The notes under the pieces were generated by a model. The model was not told the origin of the DNA. It was given only the letters and a program-made list of their open reading frames with translations, and ran no database searches. DNA of 64,000 nucleotides. Origin: an uncultured Gammaproteobacteria bacterium (GTDB taxonomy: Bacteria > Pseudomonadota > Gammaproteobacteria > DRLM01). The position numbers were made by a program, and so were the translations under genes. Below are positions 5,995-61,314 of the stretch, piece by piece; within the stretch, counting starts at the first letter, position 1, and every line of letters begins with the position of its first letter. Where the stretch lies: positions 18,750 through 82,749 of the forward strand of contig CAMYKQ010000038.1 of NCBI GenBank assembly GCA_947259075.1, written 5' to 3'.

Positions 5995-8148
5995 TCAGTG
6001 ATCTTGGCCGCTGCGCGCCACCCAAAATTGTTTGATGAGCTGGGCGCGGTTACGCACCCCCAGTTTTTCAAAAATGCGGCTCATGTGTTTTTTAACGGTG
6101 ATTTCGCTGATGTTCAAGCGCCCGGCGATGGTGCAATTGGCCGCGCCGTCGAGCGCGGCATGCACGACTTCTTGCTCGCGAGGCGTGAGTTTGCCCAGCC
6201 ATTGCGCGGTCCGGTCCGGTCCGGGCAGGGCGCTGGCGGCGGGTTGCTGTTGAATGCTGGTCCAGCTGCTCAATTCGGCGGCCACGGCGCCGGCGAGGCG
6301 GTCATCCAGGCCGCCGGCCTCGCGCAGGCCGGTCTGTTCGCTGAGCAGGTGGCTCAAATGCGTGGCGAGGCGCGGGCCGCGCAGGTCCAGCAAAAAGGTG
6401 TGGGCGGGGCGGTCGGCGGCAAAGTCGTAATGAGGCGGGCAGGTGCTGCGCACGAAGCCGAAGCGCTGCAAGAGGTCTTGATAGAGCGTCAGCGGCGTGG
6501 AGGTGATGAACAGCGCGGGGCGGATCAGCAGGGTGACCAAGTCGCGCAGCAGGACCGCGCGGCCGGCGATGTCGGCGGGGTCGCGCACGTCGATGAGGCG
6601 CACGAACCAGCAGGCGGTTTGTTCGCGCGGGGTGGCGTATACCGCCAGTTCCTTGGGGTCGAGCTGCTGGAAATAATGACGCGTGACCGGCTGCGACATT
6701 AAATAATCCAGGGTGTGACGGTTGACGGGCAGCACGATTGAAATGCCGCGCAAGGCGCCGTCGGGTCCCTTTATTAAACGCACCACCCCGGGGTCGATGG
6801 CCAGTAATTCCCTCATATTGAGAAAGTCGGGCTCGCGCGGTTCGGAGACCACCAGCTCTTTGAAGCGTGCTTGGGTGTCGCGGTCCAGTAGCTCGAGTTG
6901 CACCGAGGTGTCTTCGCCGCGCAGTCGCCGCCATTCGTCCATATAGGCTTGCAGATCGGGTAAGTCTTGCGGCGTGGCGGGGACCATGCGCAGGTCGCTG
7001 ACGCTGAGTTCGGTGGCGCCGAAGAGCGCGGCGCGCACCAGGCCGTTACCCAGCAAGTAGAAAAATTCTTGTAAGGCCGCTTTGCGTTCCTCGGCATCGC
7101 CCGGCGTAGTCGCGACGCGGGCGAAATGGCGCAGGGCATTGAGGCGCATGGTTTGGAAGACATTGGGCCGCCGCCATTGCAGGTCGCGGGCCACGGCGCC
7201 GCGCAGTAAATCATGCAGCGCCCAGCCGCGCCGCGAGCGGCGCACGAAGGAGAGATGGGTCAGTTGTTTAAATTCTTGCAGCTGCACCGGCGCGCCGCTG
7301 AGTTGACCGAGCAGCTCTTGGTCGAAGTTGCGTACGATGGCGGCGGCTTCCACTTGTTCGCGCAAGGCTTGGTCGGGTATTTCCCGCAGCCAGCGTTGCG
7401 CGAGCGCGCTGATGACTTCCGGCCGTTGCGGCGCTTCGCTGAAGGCCGCCGGGCCTTCTTGTTTGACGAGGGCGGCCGCGAGGGATAAGGCCAGGGGATG
7501 GCCGCCGGTGAATTCGAGCGCTTGCGCGGTCAAGCCGGGATCGGTGACGCCGTGGTGCGCCAGGAATTCGCGGGTGTGTTCCAGATCGAAGCTGTCGAGC
7601 GGGATGGGCCGGATCAGTTCGCACCAGGCATCGTGATCGCGCCACCATTCATGCAGAGAGAAACGCCCGGCGATAACGACAACCGCGCGTTCGGGTAATT
7701 GCGGCAAAAACACATCGCGCAGCCAGCCATCCAGCGCGCCGATGTCTTCGTAGGTATCGAAGACGATGGCGATGCGGCGTTCCGCGCTGATGCGGTGCAG
7801 GGTGGTGAGATACGCTTCGTCGCGTTCGCCCTGCAAACCGGCCGCGGCGAGGGCCGTGTTCAGCCGCGACAATAAGGAATCAGGCTGGTCGGAGAGGTCG
7901 CGCGCATCGAAATGGAAATAGAGAGCGCCTTGTTGATCCGCGATGCGCCGGTAGGCATCGAGCAAGGTGCTCTTGCCTACGCCGCCCGGGCCAAAAGGAT
8001 TGAGGATTTCCCATTCGCGTTTTCCCGCCAAGGCCTGCGCGAATAAATCGCATTCGCGCGCGCGCCCCACAAAAAACCCTTTTTTTATGCGGGCTAAGCG
8101 CGCGCCAATAGTATTACGCGCGGCGGATGCGGGTGTCGTCGCGGTCAC
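5995..8148 (-). CDS. STAND/AAA-ATPase + LuxR-HTH transcriptional regulator (MalT-like).
   Basis: N-terminal P-loop LNPFGPGGVGKSTLL. C-terminal LuxR HTH LTPREQEVVHAALDGAANCTIAGRLNISEITVKKHMSRIFEKLGVRNRAQL. Confidence 0.75.
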   Translation of the reverse strand: MTATTPASAARNTIGARLARIKKGFFVGRARECDLFAQALAGKREWEILNPFGPGGVGKSTLLDAYRRIADQQGALYFHFDARDLSDQPDSLLSRLNTALAAAGLQGERDEAYLTTLHRISAERRIAIVFDTYEDIGALDGWLRDVFLPQLPERAVVVIAGRFSLHEWWRDHDAWCELIRPIPLDSFDLEHTREFLAHHGVTDPGLTAQALEFTGGHPLALSLAAALVKQEGPAAFSEAPQRPEVISALAQRWLREIPDQALREQVEAAAIVRNFDQELLGQLSGAPVQLQEFKQLTHLSFVRRSRRGWALHDLLRGAVARDLQWRRPNVFQTMRLNALRHFARVATTPGDAEERKAALQEFFYLLGNGLVRAALFGATELSVSDLRMVPATPQDLPDLQAYMDEWRRLRGEDTSVQLELLDRDTQARFKELVVSEPREPDFLNMRELLAIDPGVVRLIKGPDGALRGISIVLPVNRHTLDYLMSQPVTRHYFQQLDPKELAVYATPREQTACWFVRLIDVRDPADIAGRAVLLRDLVTLLIRPALFITSTPLTLYQDLLQRFGFVRSTCPPHYDFAADRPAHTFLLDLRGPRLATHLSHLLSEQTGLREAGGLDDRLAGAVAAELSSWTSIQQQPAASALPGPDRTAQWLGKLTPREQEVVHAALDGAANCTIAGRLNISEITVKKHMSRIFEKLGVRNRAQLIKQFWVARSGQDH

Positions 8149-8439
8149 GATCGGGTCTGTCTCCCTTAACTGAGCGGGTGGCTATTAGTGTTTTTTGCTT
8201 TGTGCCCGCTCAGTAACAACATTCTACTTTGGTATGCCTACTTTTGGATACTTTTATTATTCGTGCGCGCTGCGTAGTTTATCTCCACTTGGTTTGCAAG
8301 TTAGTTTTCAAACATCGCAAATTTCCGCTATCTATCCCGTGCGCGTCACCAGTGGCAGGGACAAGCTGCTGGTTTTGGCACAGGGATGTGTCTTTTGAGG
8401 TATTTCTTCAGGTCTTTGGTGTTTTAAGTATGTGGCGCG

Positions 8440-11064
8440 CTACCGTGTGCTCGCGAAGAAGGGCGGCACATCCTCCGCCGGTATTGGGCGGCTGAACAGG
8501 AACCCTTGCACCATATCGCAATGGTGTTCTCGCAAAAATTGCAATTGTCTTTCGTCTTCCACGCCTTCGGCGACTACGTTGAGCCGCAGATTATGGGCCA
8601 TGGCGATGATCGCCGCGGTGATAGCCATATCGTCGGGATCGTCGGGGATGTCTTTGACGAAGGAGCGATCTACTTTGAGGGTGTCGAGGGGGAAACGCTT
8701 TAAATAGCTCAGCGAGGAATAGCCGGTGCCGAAGTCGTCAATGGAGAGTTTAATGCCCATGGCTTTGAGCTCATGCAAGGTTTCCACGGTGGTGTCGGTG
8801 TTTTTCATGATGATGCCTTCGGTAAGTTCCAATTCCAGCAACTCGGGCGCTAAGCCGGTGTCTTTCAAAGCATGGCTCACCATGTCGATGAGATTTTTAT
8901 TGTTGAATTCACGATCCGAGAGATTGACTGCCACGCGCAGCGGGCCGAGGCCGGCTTCCTGCCACTGCCGTGCCTGACGGCAGGCGTTGTACAGCACCCA
9001 TTCACCGATGGGAATGATTAATCCGGTTTCCTCGGCGAGCGGGATGAAACTGAGCGGCGAGATCAAGCCCTGGTCTTCGCGGTCCCAGCGCAGCAAGGCC
9101 TCGGCGCTTATCATGCGCCGGCTCGCCATATCGATTTGCGGCTGATAGTGCAACACAAGTTCGCCGCGCAATAGGGCGCGGCGCAACGCGGCTTCCAGTT
9201 CCATGTTTTCCGCGGCGCGGGCATTCATCGCCGGGGAATAGAGTTGATAGGTGTTCTTGCCTTGTTCTTTGGCGCGGTACAGCGCGATGTCGGCATTGCG
9301 TAGCAGGGTGTGGGCGTCGCTACCGTCATCGGGGTAGAGGCTGATGCCCAGGCTCGCGGTGACGAAGAGCTCGCGCTTTTCCAGCAGAATGGGTTCGGAG
9401 AGGGCCGTGAAGACTTTTTCGACGATGTGCATCACGTCTTCGGTTTTACCCAGATCGGTGAGCAGCAGCGCGAACTCGTCGCCACCCAGACGCGCCACGC
9501 TGTCGCCGGGGCGCAGTAACGCGGAGAGGCGTTCCCCCGCGGCCTTGAGCAATTGATCGCCGGTGTTATGGCCGAGGGTGTTGTTGATGTTCTTGAAACG
9601 GTCGAGGTCAAGCATCAGCACCGCGACTTTATGCTTACGCCAGGGTGCGCGCGCCAAGGTCTGCTGGAGGCGGTCGGTGAATAATAGGCGGTTGGGCAGC
9701 AGGGTGAGCATGTCATGGGTGGCCATGTATTGCAGATTGCTCTCCGCCCGGCGTTGCTCGGAGAGGTCTTTCAACAGAAACACGCAGCCTTCGCCTTGGC
9801 CGGCGGCGCCGAGCCGGGCGCGTGAGACCAATACCTCGATCCGCTCGCCATTTTTGCGGCGTGCGAAGGTCTCCACGTTACGCAGGCGCAGGTGCAGCGC
9901 GTCCGCCGCGATGATGAAAGGTTCTTCTTTGGTTTCTTCCAGCAGCATGCCGATGGCCTTGTACGCCAGTTCTTCCTGGGCGTAGCCGAAGATTTCAGCG
10001 GCGGCTTGATTGCTGTGGCTGATCAGGCCATGGGTGTCGGTGACCAGCAGGGCGTCGGCCATGGAGGCGATGATATTGTCCAGATAGCTCTTGGCGGCGA
10101 GGTTTTCTTGGCTGGATTTTTTCAGCGCCTCGGCCATGGCGTTGAAGGTGAGGGCGAGCTCGCCCAGTTCGTCTTTATTGGCGACCGCGACGCGTGCATT
10201 GAGGTTGCCGGCGCTGATCCCGGCGCTGGCCTGCTGGAGCTGGCTGATGGGGGTGGCGATGGCCCGGGCGGCGAAGACCCCGAGCAGCAGGGCGATGGCG
10301 AAGGTGAGGGCGCCGGTGATGAGTAAGGCATTTTGCGTGGAGAGGATGGCGGTTTGCGCCGCCCCGCGGCGGTCGCTGAATTTTTGATTGGCGTGAGTGA
10401 TGGCGTCTTCGAGGGCGCTGAGCAAGGTCATTTCCCGCTCTTCCAAAATGTTTTTGCTGTCTAATACCGCGGCGTTCGTGGCCTGATGCTGCGAGAGGGT
10501 AATGAATTCATTGCTGGCCGCGATGAATTGATCGCCGGCCTGATCGATGCGCTCCGCCAGTTGGCTCGCCGTGGGCGAGGCGCTCTGCGCGAGGACTCGG
10601 TAACGGTGCAGATGGGTTTGATAGCGCTCGAGCCCCGCCTTGATAAGTTTGATTTCGGTTTGTGTCCCTTTCTCGCCGTCATGCCCTGGCAAGCCGCGGT
10701 CATCCGTTTCGAGCAGGGCGAGTTCGCTAGTGGAGGCCACCATCCGCAGGGTGCCGGCGCGCAATTCGTTCAAGGTGCTGATCAGGGGCAGGGTTTCGTC
10801 GGCGGCTTGGGAAAAGCTGGCGCCGATACGCTGCGTCGCCTCCAAGGAAAACGCCGCCACCCCGGCCACCAGCATGGCCACTAATAAATACCCAAGCAGC
10901 AGCCGGTTGCGAATGCTCAGAGAGGCTAATACAGCAGCGTGCGGTTTTGCGCGCGCCAGGGTGCTGGCGCCCGGGTTGCTGCCGGGCAGCGGCTTGGGGG
11001 CGGTCTCCTGGGGATGGGCTCTCTGGCGGCTGTCCGGAGGTAATGCGTGTATCGGTTCGCTCAT
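8440..11064 (-). CDS. Membrane sensor with HAMP, PAS, GGDEF (diguanylate cyclase) and EAL (phosphodiesterase) domains.
   Basis: Two TM segments flank a periplasmic region. HAMP present. [14 protein letters not shown] motifs EALLRW and [13 protein letters not shown]. Confidence 0.85.
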
Positions 11065-31734: not shown

Positions 31735-33144
<1,410 letters not shown>

Positions 33145-33235
33145 GTTGAGAGCTCCTCCAGCAGGTGCAATAAATAATTTCAGTAAACTAGCCGCGTCGT
33201 TCGAAGCGGCGCCAAAAACATTGAGTGTCTAGTCA

Positions 33236-33251
33236 GGCATTAAGCATGCCA
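33236..33251 (-). promoter_or_regulatory. Candidate sigma54 (-24/-12) promoter of glnA.
   Basis: The minus strand reads TGGCATG-CTTA-ATGCC (consensus TGGCACG-N4-TTGCW; two mismatches). About 90 nt upstream of the glnA ATG. Confidence 0.35.
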
Positions 33252-33346
33252 CGATAAAAACTGTCTGATAGGACATGGATTTTAGTTGTTGTCGGTCGGA
33301 TACAGGCGGGGTTTGCGCTCGATTGTAGTGCGTCTTTGCGAGGTTT

Positions 33347-33363
33347 TGCACCATCCGGGCGCA
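33347..33363. promoter_or_regulatory. Candidate NtrC-binding palindrome upstream of glnA.
   Basis: TGCACCATCCGGGCGCA versus consensus TGCACC-N5-GGTGCA (1 mismatch). About 100 nt upstream of the putative sigma54 promoter. Confidence 0.4.
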
Positions 33364-33366
33364 AGC

Positions 33367-33603
33367 TTAGGCCGAATCTTTCGCGATCTTTATGGTGATG
33401 ATCACTTCCTTATCGATATTCTGTGTATCCAGTACGCTGTGGCCGTTGATTCTGCACCACGCGGGGATATCACTCAAGGCCCCTGGGTCGGTGCAGATTA
33501 CCTTGAGGGTATCGCCGTCCGCAAGAGTCTGGGCTTTACTCTGCACGCGGATGACGGGCAGGGGGCAAAGGAGGTTGCGGGCATCTAAAGTGTGTTCGCT
33601 CAT
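33367..33603 (-). CDS. tusA: TusA-family sulfur carrier protein.
   Basis: LDARNLLCPLPVIRV contains the CPxP active-site motif; ~78 aa. Confidence 0.75.
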   Translation of the reverse strand: MSEHTLDARNLLCPLPVIRVQSKAQTLADGDTLKVICTDPGALSDIPAWCRINGHSVLDTQNIDKEVIITIKIAKDSA

Positions 33604-34643
33604 AAGTACCATTCCTGCGGTATTTCTTCACTGGTAAACGGGGTGACGTCGACATCATACGCCGGGCCGTCTTTTTCCGTCACGCTCATGCGCACGCTCG
33701 CCAGGTCGCGGCCTTGACTAAAGCGGGCGGTCAGGCGCGCGGCGAGATGGATATCGTCCGCGCCGGCGTGGCCGTCGATCAGCGCCAGCGAGCCATTGTG
33801 CTCGGCCGGCCGCAAATGCGTGAATTGGCGGCGGTAGCCTTCGAGGTAATTATTTTCGCCCTCTTCGCGGCCGATGATGAGTTTGAAATGCGGCCGCGGC
33901 CGCAGGTGGCGGCCGACCTTGAGCAGCATGATGTCATCCAGCTCGTAGTGCTTGCCGGCCCCGGTTTGCCACAGGTCTTGCAGCTTGCGGGTGTAATTGG
34001 GGTCGGTGAGAAAACAGCAGCCGCCGGCGGGCTGGGCGTATTCGCTGATATTGAATTGTTCGGCCAGCGCGATTTGCGGTTTGCGCGAACGGCCGCTGAA
34101 TTTAAGCAGGCGTTCGCGGTCGACCCAGCCTTCGCGCTCGGGCAGGGTGGGGGGTAATAATTGAGCGCAGAGCGGCCGCAATAGGCGCTCGCCCGCGCCG
34201 GATTCCCGCGCGATGACGGGAAAGGTGTCGCGCCGCTGTGACATAGGGCGCTGGCCGAGCACCTCGCCGGTGATGATGAAGTCGAAGCCGTGCTCCTCCA
34301 TCCAGCGGCGCGCCTGGCCCACCATGAAGCCTTTGCAGTCGAGGCAGGGGTTGAGATGGGCGCCATAACCGTGTTTGGGATTGAGCACGACGTCCTTGTA
34401 TTCCTCCACCACGTCGATGATGTGCAGCTTGATGCCCAACTGCTCGGCGACCCAGAGGGCGTTGTTGCGCTTGGGTTTGGCGCCGTCGTGTTTGCGGATG
34501 GCGTGGGTGTGACCCTCGACGCAAAAGCCGGTGAAGAAATTGATGCCTTCGACGTGTACGCCTTGCTCAAGAATGAGCTGCGCGGCCAACATCGAGTCGA
34601 GGCCGCCGGAGATGAGCGCTACGGCTTTGCGCGGTGGATTCAT
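33600..34643 (-). CDS. PP-loop ATP pyrophosphatase of the MnmA (tRNA 2-thiouridylase) family, a Cys-rich variant.
   Basis: KAVALISGGLDSMLAAQLILEQGVHVEGINF aligns with the MnmA N-terminus ([31 protein letters not shown]). NPCLDCK aligns with MnmA NPDILCN. GGCCFL aligns with TGICFI. Confidence 0.6.
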   Translation of the reverse strand: MNPPRKAVALISGGLDSMLAAQLILEQGVHVEGINFFTGFCVEGHTHAIRKHDGAKPKRNNALWVAEQLGIKLHIIDVVEEYKDVVLNPKHGYGAHLNPCLDCKGFMVGQARRWMEEHGFDFIITGEVLGQRPMSQRRDTFPVIARESGAGERLLRPLCAQLLPPTLPEREGWVDRERLLKFSGRSRKPQIALAEQFNISEYAQPAGGCCFLTDPNYTRKLQDLWQTGAGKHYELDDIMLLKVGRHLRPRPHFKLIIGREEGENNYLEGYRRQFTHLRPAEHNGSLALIDGHAGADDIHLAARLTARFSQGRDLASVRMSVTEKDGPAYDVDVTPFTSEEIPQEWYL

Positions 34644-34732: not shown

Positions 34733-35311
34733 TCAGTGGCGGGGTCCGTCCTCTTTATCGGGCAGGGCGAGCGGGGTGGCGCGGGTGCGCCGGCGCAGGG
34801 TTTTCAGTGCTTGGGCGCTGCCGGTGTCACGCCACAGCTCGTAGGCGTGCAAGGCGTCGAGCCGCGATGGTTGGCCTAGCTCGCGCATGGCGTGCAGCAC
34901 GTCCATCAGGCTCACAAAGGTGGTGGCGAGACGCTGATATAAAGTGGCGCTGCTATTTTTAAGGCGCTGGCCGAGTTGATCGTAGGCGCCGCGGCCCAAG
35001 TCGACGAAATAACTTGCCTGCACCCGGCGGCGCGTGGCGCGCTCGGGAAACAAGCCGGAGTAGAGCAGACATTTATCGCCCACGTCGCGCAATTGATCTT
35101 GCGCCATTTGACCGGAGAGTTGCATGCCGCGCAGGTAATCGAGGGCTAATACGCCGGACGCCAGCTCCGGTTTATCGGTAAAGCGTATCAACAGGAAGAC
35201 CAGGTAACTTTCCATATCGTCGTCCAAGGGATGCTCGGCGGCGGCTTCCGCCTCGTTGACCAGCGTCACCCATTCTTCCATGGCACTTGCTCTGACTACG
35301 ATTTTTTTCAT
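34733..35311 (-). CDS. Conserved hypothetical protein.
   Basis: ORF with good codon usage; likely start is MKKIVV. No recognisable motif. Confidence 0.4.
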   Translation of the reverse strand: MKKIVVRASAMEEWVTLVNEAEAAAEHPLDDDMESYLVFLLIRFTDKPELASGVLALDYLRGMQLSGQMAQDQLRDVGDKCLLYSGLFPERATRRRVQASYFVDLGRGAYDQLGQRLKNSSATLYQRLATTFVSLMDVLHAMRELGQPSRLDALHAYELWRDTGSAQALKTLRRRTRATPLALPDKEDGPRH

Positions 35312-35554
35312 GCGGCCCTCCACTCGAACCTGCTAACGCATGCCGGGCCTTTTTACCGTGCTTGGTGTGTAATAGGCCCTTATTACAGCTATCGGCTGTC
35401 CTGGAGATGATTAAAGCGATCTACTCCTTTGCTGTGTCAGTGTGATAGCTTTTGTGGCCGGTTGCTTTATATGACCATCGTTCGGGGCGGCGGTGCGGCT
35501 AGATTTGGCGCGGCGCTGTGCGGCTGGAGCGATTATTAACCTAAGGAGTGGGGC

Positions 35555-36553
35555 ATGCCGCGATTAGCTGGCCAACAAGAACAGATCTCCGCATGGCGCC
35601 GCGGCGGGCGGCGGCCGGCCCTGCGTGCCTGGATCGGCGTGGCCCTATTCGCCGCACCGCCCGGTCTGGGTTTTGCCGCCGGGCTGGAGGGCGACGCGTC
35701 CTTGGGTTTGGGTTATAGCGTCTCTGAATTGAACTGGAATATCGCGGGCAGCCTGGCGGGCACGGCGCCCAATATCCTCTCCGAACTCGAATGGAAGGAC
35801 CTGAACGTGGCCATGCTCCACGCCGCTGGCGAGTTGAGCGTGGACAAGCAGCTGCTGCTGCGCGGCCGTGCCGCTTACGGCGAGGTGATTTCGGGTGACA
35901 ACCAAGATTCCGATTACAACGGCGATGATCGCAGCCTGGAATTCAGCCGCTCTAATAATCGCGGCGACGGCCAGGTCATCGAGGCCAGCCTCGGCGTGGG
36001 TTATCAGTTTTGGTGGTACGACAACACCGCCGGCCGTTACGCGCGCATCATCCCCATGTTCGGTTATGCCTGGCGCGGACAGTATCTCAGCATCAGCGAG
36101 GGCCAGCAGGTCATTCCCGCCAGCGAGGCGGGTCCCATCGCCAATCTCAACAGCAGTTATGATGCGCGGTGGCAAGGGCCATGGATGGGCCTCAGCCTGC
36201 TCATGGATACCAGCGAGCGCACGCGCGTGACCCTGGACGTGGAATATCACTTCGCCGATTACCGCGCCGAGGCCAACTGGAATCTGCGCACTGACCTAGA
36301 TCATCCCCTGAGTTTTTTGCACGAGACCCGCGGCACCGGCGTGGTCGCGGCCTTGTCCGTGCGTCACGACCTCAGCGCCAACTGGGCCCTCACCGCCCGC
36401 GTCGAATCACAACGTTTCGAGGGCGACCCCGGCCTCGACACCATTAACCTCATCGATGCGGCGAGCGGCGCCCTCGACCCGGCCGTGACCCGCCTCAATG
36501 CGGTGGAATGGCAATCCCTCGGCGGCATGCTGGCGCTCACCCGGCGCTTTTGA
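35555..36553 (+). CDS. Outer-membrane beta-barrel protein, omptin (peptidase A26)-like.
   Basis: Signal-peptide-like N-terminus. [20 protein letters not shown] resembles OmpT SQLDWKFNNAAIIKGAINWD. C-terminal ...[11 protein letters not shown] matches the beta-signal. Confidence 0.45.
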
Positions 36554-55571: not shown

Positions 55572-56333
55572 CTTCGTCTCCTCAATAAAACGGACCTATT
55601 GATCTGGGCCGCAGCCGGTCCGCTGAGCGGCTGCGCCAGGTGTTGGCCATCCTTTGCCGGTGACTTTCATGTCGTGACATTTCCTGAGCCCCTTCCAGGG
55701 CTGGACTTTTTTGGCGAGGACAAGAGCTTGAGCGAACGCGAACGCGTTATGACGGCGGGCGGAAGGGATGAGATTGCCCAGATAAACTGTGAGAGTGCTG
55801 TGTGGGTACTGCTTCGTTAGCACTGTTTGCTCAACTCGTTGTTCCCCGTACCCCTCGGGTGCTGCTCATAAAGCCAATCCCACTAAAATTACAAATCAAG
55901 TCGTTATGGTTTTTCGTGAGGCATGCTTGGGCCGGCATCGCGCGCTAAAGCGATGTGCCGGGGATTACAACTTGGTTTTGCCAAGCGGTAAGGCCGGTGC
56001 TTAAAACATGAACTCCGTCATGGAAAGATGTCGGCAGCAGGGGGGATTAATTGAGTGAAGTATGCAGGGGGTTGCTGGGGAGCGTATCTGCATAAGGCCG
56101 AAGTGAATTGAGGGCGCCATGCCACGGCTTAGCGTATTGGGGTAACGGGTTTGCGCGCGGGGGGCACCCCCCGCACCCGGAAAAATATTTGCCCGTCCGG
56201 CGGAAATACAGCCGTGCCGTATGGGGAGTAAGGCCGCCCTGCCGTGGCGGCTTGATGCGGTGTATTGCTGGGATGGTGGGTGCGGCGGTGCGGGCGTCAA
56301 TGCTTGCCGCGGCGCGTTCGACATCTTTTGAGC

Positions 56334-57257
56334 TTATCGCGGCGCGAATGTTTCGTAACTGTGTTCGATGAGGGCGCCGCTGGTCGCGCCATGCTCGGGA
56401 AAGGTGGCAAACCCCGCGATGATGATGACATGCCCGGTGGCAAAGGTTTCCTGTCCCGGGAACGCGTGCTGGTTGATTCTTGCCGTCAATCTATCGAGAA
56501 GCGCCAGCGCGCCGTCGATATTGGTTTCAGGCAGCAACAAGGCGAATTCGTTGTCAGCGTAGCGCGTCAGCGTGTCGGAAGTGCGGATGAAATTGTGCAA
56601 GAACTTACCCAGCGAATAAAGTAATAAATCACTGGCTTTGCTGCCATGCTGGGCTTGATAAGCGCTGAAATCCATGATGCCAGTAATGACCACGGAAAAC
56701 TTGCGTTCATAGCGTTGTGAACGGGAGAGCTCCATGGCCAATATTTCGTGAAAATGTTTTTTGTTGTGCAGTCCGGTGAGTTCATCGATGGTGGCGAGCC
56801 GGTGCAGCTTGCGCGTGACGTTATTCAGCCCGTCGGCGTGTTGTTTTACTCGGTCCGATAATAAGCGATTATCGTGCATCAGCTGGTATTTTTCCGCGGC
56901 GCGTTCGATGACGGTGACGATGATGCCGCTTTCGTCGGTGGGCACGGTAACGCAATCATAGGCGCCCGCTTCCAAGGCATGTTTGGCGATATTCAGCTGT
57001 ACGCGGTGTACGACCGCCACGGTTTGGGTGTTCGTTGAGCGCAAACGGACGTCTTGGATCAGGCGCAGGCCGCCCGCGCTGTCGCGCGTGGTGTTGATCG
57101 CGATAACCGCGAACTGAGTTTTTCTCAACATGCTCAGGGCTTGGGCCGCGTCCGTGGCGCGCATCACGTTGTGTCCGCGCTGGGTGAGCGCCGTGGAGAT
57201 TGAGCTGGCGACGGTTTCTTCGTCGTCGACAATGAGGATGTGCGCTGGATTGGACAT
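56334..57257 (-). CDS. Degenerate REC-GGDEF protein: pseudo-receiver and catalytically inactive GGDEF with a retained I-site.
   Basis: Receiver-like N-terminus ILIVDDEE, but the phospho-acceptor position reads VIAIN (Asn, not Asp) and the conserved Thr and Lys are lost. GGDEF motif replaced by RYADNEF. RTSD I-site retained. Confidence 0.7.
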   Translation of the reverse strand: MSNPAHILIVDDEETVASSISTALTQRGHNVMRATDAAQALSMLRKTQFAVIAINTTRDSAGGLRLIQDVRLRSTNTQTVAVVHRVQLNIAKHALEAGAYDCVTVPTDESGIIVTVIERAAEKYQLMHDNRLLSDRVKQHADGLNNVTRKLHRLATIDELTGLHNKKHFHEILAMELSRSQRYERKFSVVITGIMDFSAYQAQHGSKASDLLLYSLGKFLHNFIRTSDTLTRYADNEFALLLPETNIDGALALLDRLTARINQHAFPGQETFATGHVIIIAGFATFPEHGATSGALIEHSYETFAPR

Positions 57258-57288
57258 TCAGTCGTTACATTTGTAAATATTGTTTGGG

Positions 57289-58281
57289 TTATAGGTCATG
57301 GCTGTAGCCGGTCACTTTGTTGCGTCCTGAGCGTTTGGCGCTATACAGGGCCTTGTCGGCCTTTTCGATAAGGATGCCGGGTTCGTTGCCGTCATCGGGG
57401 AAGTTGGCCAATCCGATGCTGACGGTGATCTTGCCGCCGGGTTGGCATTCTCCCCCGTAGAACGCATGTTCCGCGATATGCTGGCGAAGATTGTTGGCCA
57501 AGATTAAGGCGCCGTCCTTCGTGGTTTCAGGAAGAATCAATACGAACTCCTCCCCGCCGTAGCGGGCCACGGTGTCGGATTGGCGCAGGCGATGGCTGAA
57601 TATGTCGGCCAGATTTTTTAATAGCTCGTCACCTTGCGGATGACCGTGAGTGTCGTTGTAGTGCTTGAATTGATCGACATCGATGAAGAGCAAGGAATAT
57701 TGGCGCTTATGGCGCAAGGCGCGCGCGTGCTCGATGCCGATGGCTTCGAAAAAATAGCGGTGGTTGTAGAGGCCGGTCAGACCGTCCTTAACCGCCAGTT
57801 CTTGCAAGACGTGATTGACCTTTTCCAGTTCGACATTGTGTTTTTTCAGGCGGCTGACCAGCAGCTTGTTGTCATGAATAAGCCGGATTCGTTCCACGCT
57901 GCGATTAATGACATTGGTCACGATCTCGAATTGTTCGAAAGGTTTAATCAGATAATCAGTCGCGCCGGCGCGCAGGGCGCACACCGCCGAATGCAGGGAG
58001 GCGTAGCTGGTTATGATGATGACTTGGGTGTCGGGCTCGCTGGCCTTGATTTTCTCCAGCACCTCCAGTCCGCTGATATTGGGCAGGCGGATATCGACCA
58101 GCACCAGCGGGTGGCGCCCTTGTTCGAATAAGGCTAAAGCGTGTTCGCCGTCGGCGGCCGTGGTGACTTTGTGGCCTTCATCCGTCAAGAGTTCTTCGAG
58201 GACGTTGCGCAGGCTTTCTTCGTCATCGATCACTAAAATATCGATACCGGAACTCATGTCATTATGGCCGGCATTATTCAT
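57289..58281 (-). CDS. Response-regulator diguanylate cyclase (REC-GGDEF).
   Basis: LVLVDIRLP receiver Asp. RQSD I-site. RYGGEEFVLILPE. Confidence 0.85.
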   Translation of the reverse strand: MNNAGHNDMSSGIDILVIDDEESLRNVLEELLTDEGHKVTTAADGEHALALFEQGRHPLVLVDIRLPNISGLEVLEKIKASEPDTQVIIITSYASLHSAVCALRAGATDYLIKPFEQFEIVTNVINRSVERIRLIHDNKLLVSRLKKHNVELEKVNHVLQELAVKDGLTGLYNHRYFFEAIGIEHARALRHKRQYSLLFIDVDQFKHYNDTHGHPQGDELLKNLADIFSHRLRQSDTVARYGGEEFVLILPETTKDGALILANNLRQHIAEHAFYGGECQPGGKITVSIGLANFPDDGNEPGILIEKADKALYSAKRSGRNKVTGYSHDL

Positions 58282-59279
58282 TTTTTTGGCGAAGACAGGC
58301 CGGGGTTCGAAGTCTCGGCCTTGATGACTTGATTTCGCCCCGATTTTTTTGCCTTGTAAAGCGCTTGGTCGGCTTGGTGAAGTACGCTGGAAGCGTCGTC
58401 GCCGTCTTCCTTGAAGGTTGAGACGCCGATGCTGGCCGTGAGTTTGCCGCCAGGCTGAGTTTCTCTGCCCGCGAAGGGATGATTCTCAACTTCTTCTCTG
58501 ATGCTTTCCGCCAGGATGGTGGCGCCTTCCTTGCCGGTTTCCGGCAGTAAGAGCACGAATTCCTCGCCGCCATAGCGCGCGGCGATATCGGAGGTGCGCA
58601 AGCGCTCGCGCAGCAGCTCGCCGAGCTTATGCAGCAACTGATCGCCCAAGGGGTGTCCATGGGTATCGTTGTACTTTTTGAAATAATCCACGTCGATAAA
58701 GATGAGTGAGAAGGGACGCTGGTGGCGCCGCGCGCGGGCGACTTCCATGGTCAGGGTTTCTTGAAAATAACGGTGATTGTACAGTCCGGTGAGGCCGTCG
58801 CGGATGGCGAGCTCCCGCAATACTTGGTTGACGTTTTCGAGTTCATTGTTGTAACTCTTGAGTTTCTCCACCAGCTGCTTGTTTTCGATGACGAGACGGA
58901 TTTTCTCGGTGGCGCGATTGACCACCGCGGAGATCAGCTCCAAGTCTTCAAAGGGTTTTATTAAATAGTCATAAGCGCCGGCGCGCAGCGCGTTCAAAGC
59001 GGTGTCGAGCGAGGCGTGGCTGGTCATGATGACGACTTGGGTCTCCGGATTTATTTCTTTAATTTTATTCAGAAGATCGATGCCGCTCATGCCGGGCATG
59101 CGGATGTCGGTGATGACCAGGACATAGTGGGATTGCGTGAAAAAGGTCAGCGCCTCTTCCGCGCTGGCTGCCGTGGTAACCGGATAACCGTCGTCGGTCA
59201 GCACCTCATGCAGTACTTCGCGCAGGCTTTCTTCGTCGTCCACGACGAGGATGGGCAGTGAATTCTTTTCACTCATCAA
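58278..59279 (-). CDS. Response-regulator diguanylate cyclase (REC-GGDEF), paralog of the downstream gene.
   Basis: VLVITDIRMPGMSG. RTSD I-site. RYGGEEFVLLLPE. 4-bp overlap with the next gene. Confidence 0.85.
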   Translation of the reverse strand: MMSEKNSLPILVVDDEESLREVLHEVLTDDGYPVTTAASAEEALTFFTQSHYVLVITDIRMPGMSGIDLLNKIKEINPETQVVIMTSHASLDTALNALRAGAYDYLIKPFEDLELISAVVNRATEKIRLVIENKQLVEKLKSYNNELENVNQVLRELAIRDGLTGLYNHRYFQETLTMEVARARRHQRPFSLIFIDVDYFKKYNDTHGHPLGDQLLHKLGELLRERLRTSDIAARYGGEEFVLLLPETGKEGATILAESIREEVENHPFAGRETQPGGKLTASIGVSTFKEDGDDASSVLHQADQALYKAKKSGRNQVIKAETSNPGLSSPKK

Positions 59280-59454
59280 GTCAGCCTCTTTACACGTGCC
59301 GCATCATTGCGGGCTACGAAAGGCGCCGCGGTGCTAGACGCGTTCGACGGCACATTCAGGGTGGACGCATCCATTGATGGATACTTACGTCGGAATAATC
59401 GTCATAATCCGGTATTTCTTGAGTGGGTAAATTCCCGTGGGACGCCAGATCCGT

Positions 59455-61314
59455 TCAGCCCGCGGCGGCGCGCGCGTCAACCTCCTTGGGCGAGACCGTG
59501 GCCGGCAGGGTGATGACGAAGCTGGCACCCTGTCCCGGCTCGCTTTCGATATGAATCTCGCCTTGGTGATCGCGGATGATGCCATAGCTCACCGATAGCC
59601 CCAGGCCGGTGCCTTTGCCGACCGCCTTGGTGGTGAAGAAGGGCTCGAAGATCTTGGCTTGAATTTCCTTGGGGATGCCGGGGCCGGTGTCGCTCACGCG
59701 CACCTCGAGCTTATCGCCGTCCAGCAAGCGCGTGCTCACGGTGACCGAACCGTTCTTGCCGTCCATGGCCTGTTGGGCGTTGATCATTAAATTCATCAGC
59801 ACTTGCTGCAGCTGATTGCCATTACCCATGAATTTGGGCAGGTCCGGCGTGAGCTCTTTGTTGAGCTTGACCTGGTTGATGGTGAGCTGGTGATCGACGA
59901 TGGCGCAGGCCTCGCTTACCACGTTATTGAGCTCGGTGATTTCCATCGCCACTTTTTCCTGACGGGCGAACCTCATGAGATTTTCGATGATCTCCTTGCA
60001 GCGTTTGGTCTCTTTTTCGATGAGACTCAAGTGCCGGTACACGGGGCTTTCCTTGTCGACCTTGCGCATCGACAGTTGCGCGTAGCCGAGGATGCCCGCC
60101 AGCGGGTTCTTCACCTCATGGGCGATACCGGCGCTGAGCTGGCCGAAGGCGGACATTTTTTCCGACTGCACCAGCGCGGCCTGCGCCTGTTTGAGTGCCT
60201 CCTCGCGGCTGTGCAGCTCGGTGGCCATGTGATTGAAGCTGTGGGCGAGCTCACCCATCTCGTCATTGCTGGTGATGTCGACGTGGATATCGAATTTACC
60301 CTGCCCGACCTCGCGGGCGGCGAGGGAGAGCTGTTCCACCGGCCGGGTGATTTGCCGCGACCAAAACAGGCTCATGAGCGCGGAGAGGACCAGCAGACCC
60401 AAGCTGACGCCGGTTAAGTTGTTGAGCAATTCGCGCGCGGTCAAATAGGCGGCGGATTTGGGTATCTGCGTGCCCAGCACCATTTTCGACACCTCGACGC
60501 GGGCGAAGGCGCCCACCATCTCGTTGCCGTTGGCGAGGTATTCCAATGAACTGGCCGCGGTTTGGCCTTTTATCAAAGGTTCCAGCGCGCGCAGGGTGTC
60601 CAAGGGCAGCCAGTCCAGCGGCGCGCGGGCGCTGACGTGTTGCGGCTCGCGGCTGACGAGAATGTTTCCGGCGTTGTCGACGATGAAGATCTCGAACACG
60701 CTGGTGCGGTCCGCCACCCGCAGCAAGGCGTCCATTTTAATGGTGGCGGCGGCGATGACGGGCGCTTCGGTGTCGGTCAAGGCCACCGGCGTGGCGAGGA
60801 CGAAGGCCGGGAGTTTATCGTTGAGGGTGGCATTGAACACGAAAGGCCGTTCCGTGGTGATTTTGTCGAAGGGCAGCGGGTTGGCGTCGCGAAAGGCTTG
60901 CAGGTCTTGTTTGGCGAGCCCCGCGCCCTGCAGGCCGCGGGCGTCGAACACCGTGGCTTGTTCAGTTTTGTTTTGATAGAGCGTGACGGCGATGAATTCC
61001 GGGAAGTCTTCGAACAGACCCTCCAGTAATTTGGCCTTTTCCTGTTGCGGCAGGAAGGGGTCGTACATCACGCGGCCGAAGACCTGTAAGCGCTCGTTAT
61101 ACCCTTGCACGATGGAGTTCACCTCTTCCGCGGCGTGCACCGCCACCAAGGAGGTCAAGTCACGAATATAGGTGCGCTTGTCGCTGTGAAACAGATTGGC
61201 CATGGTGAAGGTGATGACGCTCACCACGATGGTAATCACCACCAGCAAGGACAGCAGGATTTTGAAGCGCAGCGGAATGCGCAGGCCGCGGCGTGGCGTG
61301 GTAACGGCGCTCAT
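59455..61314 (-). CDS. Sensor histidine kinase with a periplasmic (Cache-like) domain, HAMP, HisKA and HATPase.
   Basis: TM1 ILLSLLVVITIVVSVITFTM. ~270-aa periplasmic region. TM2. HAMP. H-box SEKMSAFGQLSAGIAHEVKNPLAGI. G-boxes DTGPGI and GKGTGLGLSVS. Confidence 0.85.
   Translation of the reverse strand: MSAVTTPRRGLRIPLRFKILLSLLVVITIVVSVITFTMANLFHSDKRTYIRDLTSLVAVHAAEEVNSIVQGYNERLQVFGRVMYDPFLPQQEKAKLLEGLFEDFPEFIAVTLYQNKTEQATVFDARGLQGAGLAKQDLQAFRDANPLPFDKITTERPFVFNATLNDKLPAFVLATPVALTDTEAPVIAAATIKMDALLRVADRTSVFEIFIVDNAGNILVSREPQHVSARAPLDWLPLDTLRALEPLIKGQTAASSLEYLANGNEMVGAFARVEVSKMVLGTQIPKSAAYLTARELLNNLTGVSLGLLVLSALMSLFWSRQITRPVEQLSLAAREVGQGKFDIHVDITSNDEMGELAHSFNHMATELHSREEALKQAQAALVQSEKMSAFGQLSAGIAHEVKNPLAGILGYAQLSMRKVDKESPVYRHLSLIEKETKRCKEIIENLMRFARQEKVAMEITELNNVVSEACAIVDHQLTINQVKLNKELTPDLPKFMGNGNQLQQVLMNLMINAQQAMDGKNGSVTVSTRLLDGDKLEVRVSDTGPGIPKEIQAKIFEPFFTTKAVGKGTGLGLSVSYGIIRDHQGEIHIESEPGQGASFVITLPATVSPKEVDARAAAG

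Follow-up and report, generated by a model that had tools for sequence, protein, structure and literature searches.

Burroughs and Aravind (RNA Biol 2014; PMC4075521) described a "ThiI+DUF814/NFACT-R + TusA" family, reported from "some gamma-proteobacteria", which they predicted to be a THUMP-less replacement of ThiI in tRNA 4-thiouridylation. The family motifs given there are SGGxDS, a CxxC with an internal Cys, GRxRxxQ and TxxE, and the NFACT-R domain opens with two nearly invariant arginines. According to the same authors, the NFACT-R subfamily fused to a PP-loop domain shows conserved arginines rather than the DxxxH motif; of these two features, the arginines alone were confirmed here. In their model, TusA stands in for the rhodanese domain. 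The family was also reported to be in near-complete mutual exclusion with THUMP-containing ThiI, a pairing that was made against ThiI and not against MnmA. This prediction goes unmentioned in a 2022 primary study and in a 2023 review of s4U synthases, and no experimental work on any PP-loop-NFACT-R family member was found in the searchable literature.

The archaeal TtuI/ThiI enzymes of M. maripaludis and Pyrococcus furiosus (PMC9825150) resemble the protein described below in being PP-loop thiolases without a rhodanese domain, with a CXXC + C set by the ATP site and a proposed s4U8 product. They still have ferredoxin-like and THUMP domains at the N-terminus and work with sulfide in vitro, whereas our protein ends in an NFACT-R_2 domain and comes with its own TusA. 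Both M. maripaludis TtuI (PMC9825150) and T. thermophilus MnmA (PMC7025502) depend on a [4Fe-4S] cluster that is bound by this CXXC + C set. Canonical bacterial ThiI (E. coli b0423, B. anthracis 2C5S, T. maritima 4KR6) shares the PP-loop core, a TGE-LGQ-SQ...RPL segment and the catalytic Cys with our protein, which has neither the NFLD/THUMP nor the rhodanese domain, carries a CxxC absent from E. coli ThiI, and has an active-site loop that is about 40 residues longer and contains its own conserved motifs.

Judged by its architecture and motifs, the 347-aa protein encoded on the reverse strand of the window analysed here (the whole stretch of 64,000 nucleotides) is a member of this ThiI+NFACT-R family. 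The PP-loop with SGGxDS, the NFACT-R domain without THUMP or rhodanese, the CxxC and additional Cys, GRxRxxQ, TxxE, the arginines and the TusA neighbour were all found (Table 1). Domain order, motifs and a TusA with a conserved Cys are the same as in the system of 2014, with no difference in kind; the architecture and the TusA neighbour were already described at that time. What this clade adds is a CC doublet, a stop codon that often overlaps the tusA start, and glnA and glyQS as syntenic neighbours. An Fe-S interpretation of the Cys triad postdates the 2014 paper and is absent from it. As our main reading, to which we assign a probability of roughly 0.6, the gene pair may form a two-component RNA-thiolation system (ThiI+NFACT-R + TusA) that likely makes s4U at tRNA position 8, with a [4Fe-4S] route being favoured.

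Table 1. Features of the gene pair and its neighbour, in positions of the window.
Feature	Position	Strand	Basis
347-aa PP-loop + NFACT-R_2 protein	33600..34643	-	ORF, Pfam, homologues, AF2 model
Catalytic PP-loop (N-type ATP pyrophosphatase) domain, residues 1-243, with elaborated active-site loop	33915..34643	-	hhalign, profile matches to MnmA and ThiI structures
PP-loop ATP-binding motif SGGLDS, residues 12-17	34593..34610	-	translation
CLDC (C100-x-x-C103) within NPCxDC, first two Cys of the triad	34335..34346	-	translation, alignment
GRSRKPQ, residues 184-190, family-specific GRxRxxQ motif	34074..34094	-	translation; motif named in PMC4075521
CC doublet C209-C210, C210 being the third triad Cys	34014..34019	-	translation, alignment
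C-terminal NFACT-R_2 domain, residues 244-346, predicted RNA-binding module	33606..33914	-	PF18297, 3.1e-33
Stop/start overlap ATGA of both genes	33600..33603	-	read from sequence
78-aa TusA-family sulfur carrier	33367..33603	-	PF01206, 3.7e-22
Active-site CPLP of the TusA-family protein	33556-33567	-	sequence
glnA (glutamine synthetase)	31735..33144	-	ORF; syntenic neighbour

The first-pass annotation had proposed that the stop codon of the longer gene overlaps a tusA-like start, that the two genes form a dedicated sulfur-relay pair and that they lie upstream of glnA, and each of these points stands. The junction reads ...TGG TAC TTA TGA GCG... from the 347-aa gene into the TusA gene, where the stop TGA (33600-33602) shares letters with the ATG (33601-33603) in a 4-nt ATGA overlap, and an AGGA is located 9 nt 5' of this ATG. 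A more distal ATG at 33612 would yield a protein of 81 aa (33367-33612) and a 13-nt overlap; the public record of the TusA-family protein is the 78-aa form. Based on the overlap, both genes are probably translationally coupled. The small protein scores 78.4 bits against PF01206 (cut-off 28.6) and 54.2 bits against NF001423, the equivalog model of E. coli TusA (cut-off 78). Since the Pfam TusA domain is recognised and the NF001423 cut-off is missed, this protein is, by these scores, a TusA-family paralogue that falls below the E. coli TusA equivalog.

The neighbourhoods of 80 gammaproteobacterial relatives were compared, with flanks of 5-6 kb on either side. Of the 79 loci with enough room downstream, 69 have a TusA gene directly 3' in the same orientation. 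Within these 69, the stop codon is overlapped in 35 and the 4-nt geometry is kept in 26. Of 70 TusA neighbours, 99% retain the CPxP cysteine. A natural TusA-PP-loop-NFACT-R_2 fusion was found in two independent assemblies. An adjacent TusA is absent from the other 10 of the 79 loci (nine with at least 860 nt downstream, the tenth, L029, with 300 nt) and from all four distant members sampled, the small downstream ORFs of which are not TusA. In eight of the TusA-less gammaproteobacterial loci, ORF lists read by eye contained no other sulfur carrier beside the gene.

The glnA gene starts 222 nt 3' of the TusA stop. Of the 59 related loci that leave room for it, 36 have glnA downstream in the same orientation, often with a CDF-transporter gene in between, and glnA probably stands outside the thiolation system as plain synteny. 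In Pseudomonas, thiI presumably adjoins glnA. An in-situ replacement of thiI beside glnA is nevertheless unsupported, as a glnA-centred metagenome scan of 80 loci recovered PP-loop-NFACT-R + TusA upstream of glnA in 17 and E. coli-type ThiI in none, and the adjacency is therefore treated as synteny. A candidate sigma-54 promoter 5' of glnA (TGGCATGCTTAATGCC, 33236-33251) is suitably placed, but matches of this kind do not rise above chance in the window. Between tusA and glnA, no terminator-like site was found. The 64-kb window contains no tRNA genes and no Rfam matches. No tusBCDE was detected by tblastn of the window, for which E. coli ThiI, E. coli MnmA and the window's own proteins were the only queries, or by Pfam on a subset of the ORFs. 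A further ThiI-like match was found neither in the window nor in the 80 family-centred or the 80 glnA-centred loci, all of these being loci rather than whole genomes.

The family comprises more than 8000 homologues (about 900 clusters at 50% identity), which means that the ORF is not a chance one. It spans many gammaproteobacterial orders, and methanotrophs as well as sulfur oxidisers are among its carriers; the closest homologues of the 347-aa protein are 72-91% identical. The closest genome matches are 73-74% identical. To count conserved residues, 66 diverse family members were aligned, all 66 of which carry the NFACT-R_2 domain. In the PP-loop motif, S12, G14, L15, D16 and S17 are invariant. 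Further on, C100, D102 and C103, located in NPCLDC (residues 98-103), are each present in 66/66, as is C210 in GGCCFL (residues 207-212). The GRxRxxQ and TxxE (T166/E169) motifs are conserved in 62-66 of the 66, with G184 and R187 invariant and R185 and Q190 each in 65, and the start of NFACT-R_2 is marked by R245 (66/66), R248 (60/66) and R259 (64/66). The first-pass annotation had likened the extra cysteines to those of the [4Fe-4S]-dependent MnmA class. This idea is reasonable, as C100, C103 and C210 are invariant and occupy positions equivalent to the cluster ligands of [4Fe-4S]-dependent MnmA and ThiI (PMC7025502, PMC9825150). Of the CC doublet, C210 alone is conserved across the family; C209 occurs in 21/66 sequences, yet in all 80 gammaproteobacterial loci, and is clade-specific.

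From the observed architecture, motifs, TusA linkage and family size, we infer substrate, position, cluster and sulfur route as follows. An IscS-type cysteine desulfurase, encoded elsewhere, would place a persulfide on the CPxP Cys of the 78-aa TusA. The NFACT-R_2 domain of the 347-aa enzyme would dock the tRNA, a task for which canonical ThiI has its THUMP domain, after which the PP-loop domain would adenylate the target uridine with ATP and the sulfur from TusA would displace the activated oxygen. As product, 4-thiouridine at tRNA position 8 is the most likely, which would make the enzyme a non-orthologous replacement of ThiI. Passage of the sulfur via a [4Fe-4S] cluster is favoured over a Cys-persulfide/disulfide cycle because the invariant CxxC + C triad sits at the cluster site of archaeal TtuI/ThiI, C-type MnmA and TtuA; from this motif position, cluster binding by C100, C103 and C210 is a reasonable expectation. 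The AF2 model of the protein is otherwise very confident (pLDDT 94.6, pTM 0.91), with its lowest values, dropping to a pLDDT of 75, at residues 201-210 in the loop with C210. Likewise, low confidence in cluster-ligand loops was noted by He et al. (PMC9825150).

The same target and partners could also be served without a cluster, which we consider possible but doubtful. In that scheme, which has been put forward for E. coli ThiI and D-type MnmA, TusA-persulfide would pass its sulfur to C210 for attack on the adenylated uridine, the intermediate would be resolved as a disulfide by C103 or C100, and the CxxC would be either a redox-active pair or a site for Zn. This is exactly the model of 2014, with TusA in place of rhodanese (PMC4075521), and persulfide carriers like TusA are typical of cluster-free relays (PMC7025502). 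C210 indeed aligns with the persulfide-carrying or catalytic Cys of the cluster-free E. coli enzymes. However, cluster-free MnmA has Asp rather than Cys at the first motif position, whereas all three cysteines are invariant in the 66 sequences, and the tested members with CxxC + C, T. thermophilus MnmA and M. maripaludis TtuI, required [4Fe-4S] (PMC7025502, PMC9825150).

The protein begins at the PP-loop, with the motif starting at residue 12. Within the catalytic domain, MnmA and ThiI are matched about equally. Pfam returns tRNA_Me_trans (4.9e-12, 46.4 bits) and ThiI (1.8e-10), the PDB profile matches include MnmA 2der and 9hln, and family-profile hhalign aligns residues 1-235 of the protein with residues 1-225 of E. 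coli MnmA (probability 97.6, E 3.5e-12) and also covers residues 179-351 of E. coli ThiI (probability 96.6, E 5e-10), with C210 on the catalytic C344 of ThiI. By Pfam, PDB profile, hhalign and Foldseek, the catalytic domain thus lies about as near to ThiI as to MnmA, with a slight lean towards MnmA, and the scores are so nearly equal that none of these methods separates the two. As these comparisons favour neither, the choice of U8 over U34 rests on the phyletic argument of 2014.

A divergent MnmA-type enzyme, which would make s2U at wobble position 34 with sulfur taken straight from its TusA partner, a shorter relay than TusA-TusBCD-TusE in E. coli, is unlikely. MnmA is the name in database records, and an MnmA-like enzyme is what the first-pass annotation had seen, but as a family assignment this fails with both equivalog models (NF001138, 48.2 vs 284 bits; TIGR00420, 42.4 vs 236.95 bits; residues 7-127 only), the bit scores being about 5-fold or more under the cut-offs. 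The ThiI model TIGR00342 gives 41.3 vs 264.5 bits. With phmmer, the match to E. coli MnmA (E 5.6e-5) is confined to the PP-loop half, residues 5-129. The hhalign match goes further and bears out the earlier observation that the PP-loop and both catalytic-Cys regions align: NPCxDC and GGC fall on the NP(D/C)xxC and G-I-C-F catalytic cysteines of MnmA, with C103 on C102 and C210 on C199, before the match stops at MnmA residue 225. The middle and C-terminal domains of MnmA, which reportedly hold the anticodon arm (2DER structure), are absent. In Pfam, THUMP, rhodanese and MnmA C-terminal domains gave no match, and beyond the HUP domain there is only NFACT-R_2, matched over its full length (profile positions 1-104 of 104). 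The first-pass annotation was therefore right that the MnmA C-terminal region is missing, but calling the protein an MnmA shortened by 21 aa would be wrong, since an unrelated NFACT-R_2 domain replaces that region from residue 244; its idea of a different substrate gains from this, as a non-MnmA C-terminus points in that direction. In addition, hhalign places TGEVLGQRPMSQ on TGEALGQVSSQ of ThiI, in agreement with the second stretch of 2c5s, and this ThiI-type TGE-LGQ-SQ...RPL segment (TGEVLGQRPMSQ...RPL) stands where MnmA has TGHY...DQSYFL. T. thermophilus C-type and E. coli D-type MnmA (PMC7025502) nevertheless remain the best-scoring relatives of the catalytic domain, with the cysteines of NPCxxC and G-x-C-F aligned, and the best single-family scores are those to MnmA. 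TusA, too, is common to this pathway, as the entry of the E. coli s2U34 relay (PMC7025502); the phyletic pairing of 2014 is against ThiI (PMC4075521).

Assignment to QueC or LarE was rejected by the HMM searches, with QueC reaching 14.5 bits (cut-off 22) in the PP-loop only, which keeps the enzyme within the tRNA-thiolase group where the first-pass annotation had put it. The C-terminal domain is homologous to NFACT-R of RqcH/NEMF and FbpA (7AQC, 8S1U, 5H3W), both by profile (E 2e-7 to 9e-6; 2.3e-7 for RqcH NFACT-R, together with the FbpA C-terminus, in the PDB profile search) and by fold (Foldseek matches 5h3w, 8s1u and 7aqc). RqcH NFACT-R proteins have a ribosome-associated function; unlike the 347-aa protein, RqcH/NEMF and FbpA also contain NFACT-N and HhH domains, and their role is in ribosome quality control. 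These matched structures (RqcH, ribosome-bound RQC complexes), a whole architecture shared by no solved structure in Foldseek, a catalytic domain lying between established families and a Foldseek match to [4Fe-4S]-LarE (1.9e-6, close to the MnmA and ThiI scores) would suit a target other than tRNA U8 or U34, be it another tRNA position, rRNA or another RNA, or a LarE-like non-RNA metabolite. Bacteria are not known to have a thiolated nucleoside in their rRNA. Such a target is improbable, as the fused RNA-binding domain speaks against a small-molecule substrate, a family that is large and 72-78% identical across gammaproteobacterial orders suggests a housekeeping role, and the reported mutual exclusion with ThiI favours U8 (PMC4075521).

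A bolder reading is a long shot: the family might substitute for neither ThiI nor MnmA and be a [4Fe-4S]- and TusA-dependent thiolase of an RNA position or class without an assigned enzyme or, more mildly, a third class of s4U8 synthase, a bacterial one. In the former case, the enzyme would be steered to its new target by the NFACT-R domain, which is otherwise known from ribosome-associated proteins; in the milder one, the TusA persulfide would feed the free iron of the [4Fe-4S] cluster.

A large conserved family thus carries the MnmA name in public records yet fails the MnmA models. Because of this naming, s2U34 synthesis may be mis-assigned and s4U synthesis wrongly called missing in pathway reconstructions. 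The THUMP-less, TusA-fed 4-thiouridine pathway of 2014 is a standing prediction. If the CxxC + C triad does bind a [4Fe-4S] cluster, TusA would be a persulfide carrier serving a cluster-dependent thiolase, which would link two known strategies of sulfur insertion.

Pfam assigns an NFACT-R_2 domain to the 347-aa protein (PF18297, E 3.1e-33, residues 244-346, entire profile covered), preceded by a PP-loop region matching both tRNA_Me_trans, the MnmA HUP domain (E 4.9e-12, residues 6-126), and ThiI (E 1.8e-10, residues 6-158). The NCBIfam equivalog cut-offs are far from being reached, with 48.2 versus 284 bits and 42.4 versus 236.95 for MnmA, and 41.3 versus 264.5 bits for ThiI. Given these MnmA scores, the MnmA-like family label of the first-pass annotation is wrong. 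A QueC match in NCBIfam is confined to the PP-loop motif, and this assignment was rejected. More than 8000 homologues were scored; those listed are 72-91% identical and all combine PP-loop and NFACT-R_2, while the named ones are called 'tRNA (5-methylaminomethyl-2-thiouridylate)-methyltransferase' or 'MnmA/TrmU'. The family comprises about 900 representatives (E <= 1e-30, 50% clustering), and all 66 diverse members aligned carry NFACT-R_2. In one representative, P0229 (604 aa), the PP-loop is joined to an incomplete NFACT-R_2 and then to Formyl_trans_N and Formyl_trans_C, as in methionyl-tRNA formyltransferase; this could reflect either a genuine fusion with a second tRNA enzyme or a faulty gene call.

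As described by Burroughs and Aravind (RNA Biol 2014, PMC4075521), ThiI-like PP-loop domains fused to DUF814, renamed NFACT-R, occur in many bacterial phyla, including 'some gamma-proteobacteria'. These proteins have neither a THUMP nor a rhodanese domain, but keep CxxC and an internal cysteine, show family-specific GRxRxxQ and TxxE motifs within an enlarged active-site loop and have two nearly invariant arginines in NFACT-R. Their sole conserved gene neighbour is TusA, with one TusA fusion, and they almost completely exclude THUMP-ThiI. From this architecture, the motifs, the TusA neighbour and the exclusion, the authors predicted a new tRNA 4-thiouridylation route. On the 66-member alignment (34-65% identity to the window protein), the PP-loop residues, C100, D102, C103, C210, G184, R187 and R245 are invariant, followed by R185 and Q190 (65/66 each), E169 and R259 (64/66 each), T166 (62/66) and R248 (60/66). 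C209, the second cysteine of the doublet pointed out earlier, is present in only 21/66, yet in all 80 gammaproteobacterial loci. Since the published features are conserved across the alignment, the window protein is, judged by its sequence, a typical family member.

Whether the catalytic domain is closer to ThiI or to MnmA is not discriminated by profile, hhalign, Foldseek or Pfam comparisons. The family profile matches MnmA (2.8e-11, residues 4-126) and ThiI (1.9e-9, residues 6-50 and 103-157) in the PDB. The MnmA alignment reported earlier is real (hhalign with E. coli MnmA: probability 97.6, E 3.5e-12, residues 1-235), and E. coli ThiI aligns over residues 7-216 (probability 96.6, E 5e-10). 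Foldseek retrieves MnmA (4e-7), ThiI (7.7e-7 and 1.4e-6), [4Fe-4S]-LarE (~2e-6) and TtuA (~6e-6) from the PDB, with no solved structure spanning the entire protein, and Pfam matches MnmA in 63 and ThiI in 65 of the 66 members. The protein resembles MnmA around NPCxDC and ThiI over the TGEVLGQRPMSQ...RPL segment, where E. coli MnmA has TGHY in place of TGEVLGQRPMSQ; C210 lines up with the catalytic cysteine in MnmA and ThiI alike. The catalytic domain itself falls into a branch of its own within the ThiI/MnmA group. The predicted assignment to U8 is based on the published phyletic complementarity (PMC4075521).

AlphaFold2, run on the 66-sequence alignment, gives a model of very high confidence (pLDDT 94.6, pTM 0.91), whose sole clear dip is at residues 201-210 (block mean 75), the loop with C209/C210. 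For the C-terminal domain, both profile search and Foldseek return the FbpA C-terminal fragment and RqcH. By position, the cysteine triad matches the CxxC + C motif through which T. thermophilus MnmA (PMC7025502) and the TtuI proteins of M. maripaludis and P. furiosus (PMC9825150) bind an essential [4Fe-4S] cluster, whereas cluster-free MnmA has Asp instead of Cys at the first motif position. Because of this equivalence and difference, we favour a cluster route: the target uridine would be adenylated in an ATP-dependent step, TusA-persulfide would deliver sulfur via the [4Fe-4S] cluster, and NFACT-R would position the tRNA. A persulfide/disulfide cycle without a cluster, as proposed in 2014 (PMC4075521), is a serious alternative.

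Features of the window and motifs of the 347-aa protein
Feature	Position	Strand	Basis or content
PP-loop gene, 347 aa	33600-34643	-	ORF call
Small TusA-like ORF	33367-33612 as listed	-	ORF call; overlaps PP-loop gene
tusA-glnA spacer	33145-33366	-	222 nt from TusA stop to glnA
Sigma-54-like TGGCATGCTTAATGCC	33236-33251	-	within tusA-glnA spacer
glnA	31735-33144	-	ORF call
196-aa ORF	34733-35323	-	90 nt upstream of PP-loop gene, same strand
332-aa protein	35555-36553	+	'Protochlamydia outer membrane protein' family (Pom, PF17251), E 7e-61
Giant ORF, 3060 aa	45694-54876	-	Calx-beta repeats, Big_1, SdrD_B-like, Glucodextran_B, internal OmpA domain
SGGLDS	residues 12-17		translation
NPCLDC	residues 98-103		translation
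GGCCFL	residues 207-212		translation

NPCLDC and GGCCFL, as quoted in the first-pass annotation, are found in the translation together with SGGLDS, and the proposed stop/start overlap exists: the junction reads TGG TAC TTA TGA GCG, with ATGA at 33600-33603, three bases being common to the stop and the ATG. This ATG has an AGGA 9 nt ahead of it, and its product equals a 78-aa TusA-like form in the public protein collection. The small ORF belongs to the TusA family (PF01206, 78.4 bits, CPLP motif) but does not reach the NCBIfam equivalog threshold for E. coli TusA (54.2 versus 78). A genome scan gave at least 600 matching stretches and 599 confirmed relatives, of which the best 80 were analysed. 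These are all Gammaproteobacteria, including Alkalilimnicola, Sulfuricaulis, Acidiferrobacterales, Thiotrichales, Chromatiales, Arenicellales, uncultured Pseudomonadales and Methylococcales such as Methylobacter tundripaludum SV96. A same-strand TusA follows the PP-loop gene in 69/79 loci with room, bearing out the suggested dedicated partner. The overlap is identical to the 4 nt of the window in 26 loci, the stop codon is overlapped in 35, and the start lies within 15 nt in 50. Neighbouring TusA proteins keep the CPxP cysteine in 99% and the WCR cysteine in 93%; one family representative, found in two independent assemblies, is a TusA-PP-loop-NFACT-R_2 fusion. Adjacent TusA is missing from 10/79 loci, several from Thiothrix/Thiotrichaceae; one of the ten (L029) has only 300 nt of downstream sequence. 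ORF lists of eight TusA-less loci (L058, L063, L067 and L079 from Thiothrix/Thiotrichaceae; L034, L037, L039 and L075) show no obvious alternative sulfur carrier beside the gene; presumably, the partner is encoded elsewhere. None of four distant members sampled has an adjacent TusA. In one distant member (L089, 2314-3117), a DUF116 gene overlaps the PP-loop-NFACT-R gene start, in TusA's place.

glnA lies downstream in 36/59 related loci with room, after TusA either directly or with an intervening CDF-transporter gene, and a glnA-centred scan found the pair upstream of glnA in 17/80 loci. We read this adjacency as synteny inside a gammaproteobacterial clade rather than a functional link. In L005, a ~400-aa cation-diffusion-facilitator-like membrane protein (7258-8454, sequence reading only) separates tusA and glnA; 19 of the 36 loci have a gap of similar size (gap size only), and the window has no such gene. 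From low to high coordinates, the window holds a trmL-like SpoU methylase, ntrC, ntrB, a DUF4124 gene, glnA, the tusA-like gene, the PP-loop gene and the 196-aa ORF, all on the minus strand and thus transcribed from the 196-aa ORF towards the methylase. The Pom-family gene, glyQ and glyS follow on the opposite strand. The 196-aa ORF, without matches in Pfam and NCBIfam, may form one operon with the PP-loop gene. Homologues lie upstream of the PP-loop gene in 14/80 loci (7 within ~300 nt, the rest 1-3 kb off), between it and divergent glyQ. In the tusA-glnA spacer, TGGCATGCTTAATGCC and TGCACC/GGTGCA-type half-sites would fit a glnAp2/NtrC-type promoter, the sigma-54-like pattern being no more frequent in the window than by chance. 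No terminator-like site was found between tusA and glnA.

Elsewhere in the window, the 3060-aa ORF is probably a large surface adhesin, and the surroundings of the Pom-family protein are otherwise gammaproteobacterial. G+C is lower at 1-2000 (0.50) and 56001-60000 (0.555-0.558) than elsewhere (0.60-0.66); these stretches may be acquired segments.

In a full-text search, with most subscription-journal papers outside its scope, only the 2014 study tied NFACT-R/DUF814 to thiouridine or sulfurtransferases, and neither the 2022 TtuI-class paper (PMC9825150) nor a 2023 ThiI/THUMP-enzyme review mentions the family. The first-pass observation is borne out. Its interpretation was right in spirit as to predicted function (a thiolase whose cysteines are of the Fe-S type, with its own TusA partner and a substrate other than that of MnmA), but put the protein in the wrong family. 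The locus is a further member of a computationally described, apparently uncharacterised family, whose naming in databases is a widespread annotation error, and offers a clean test case for the prediction made in 2014.
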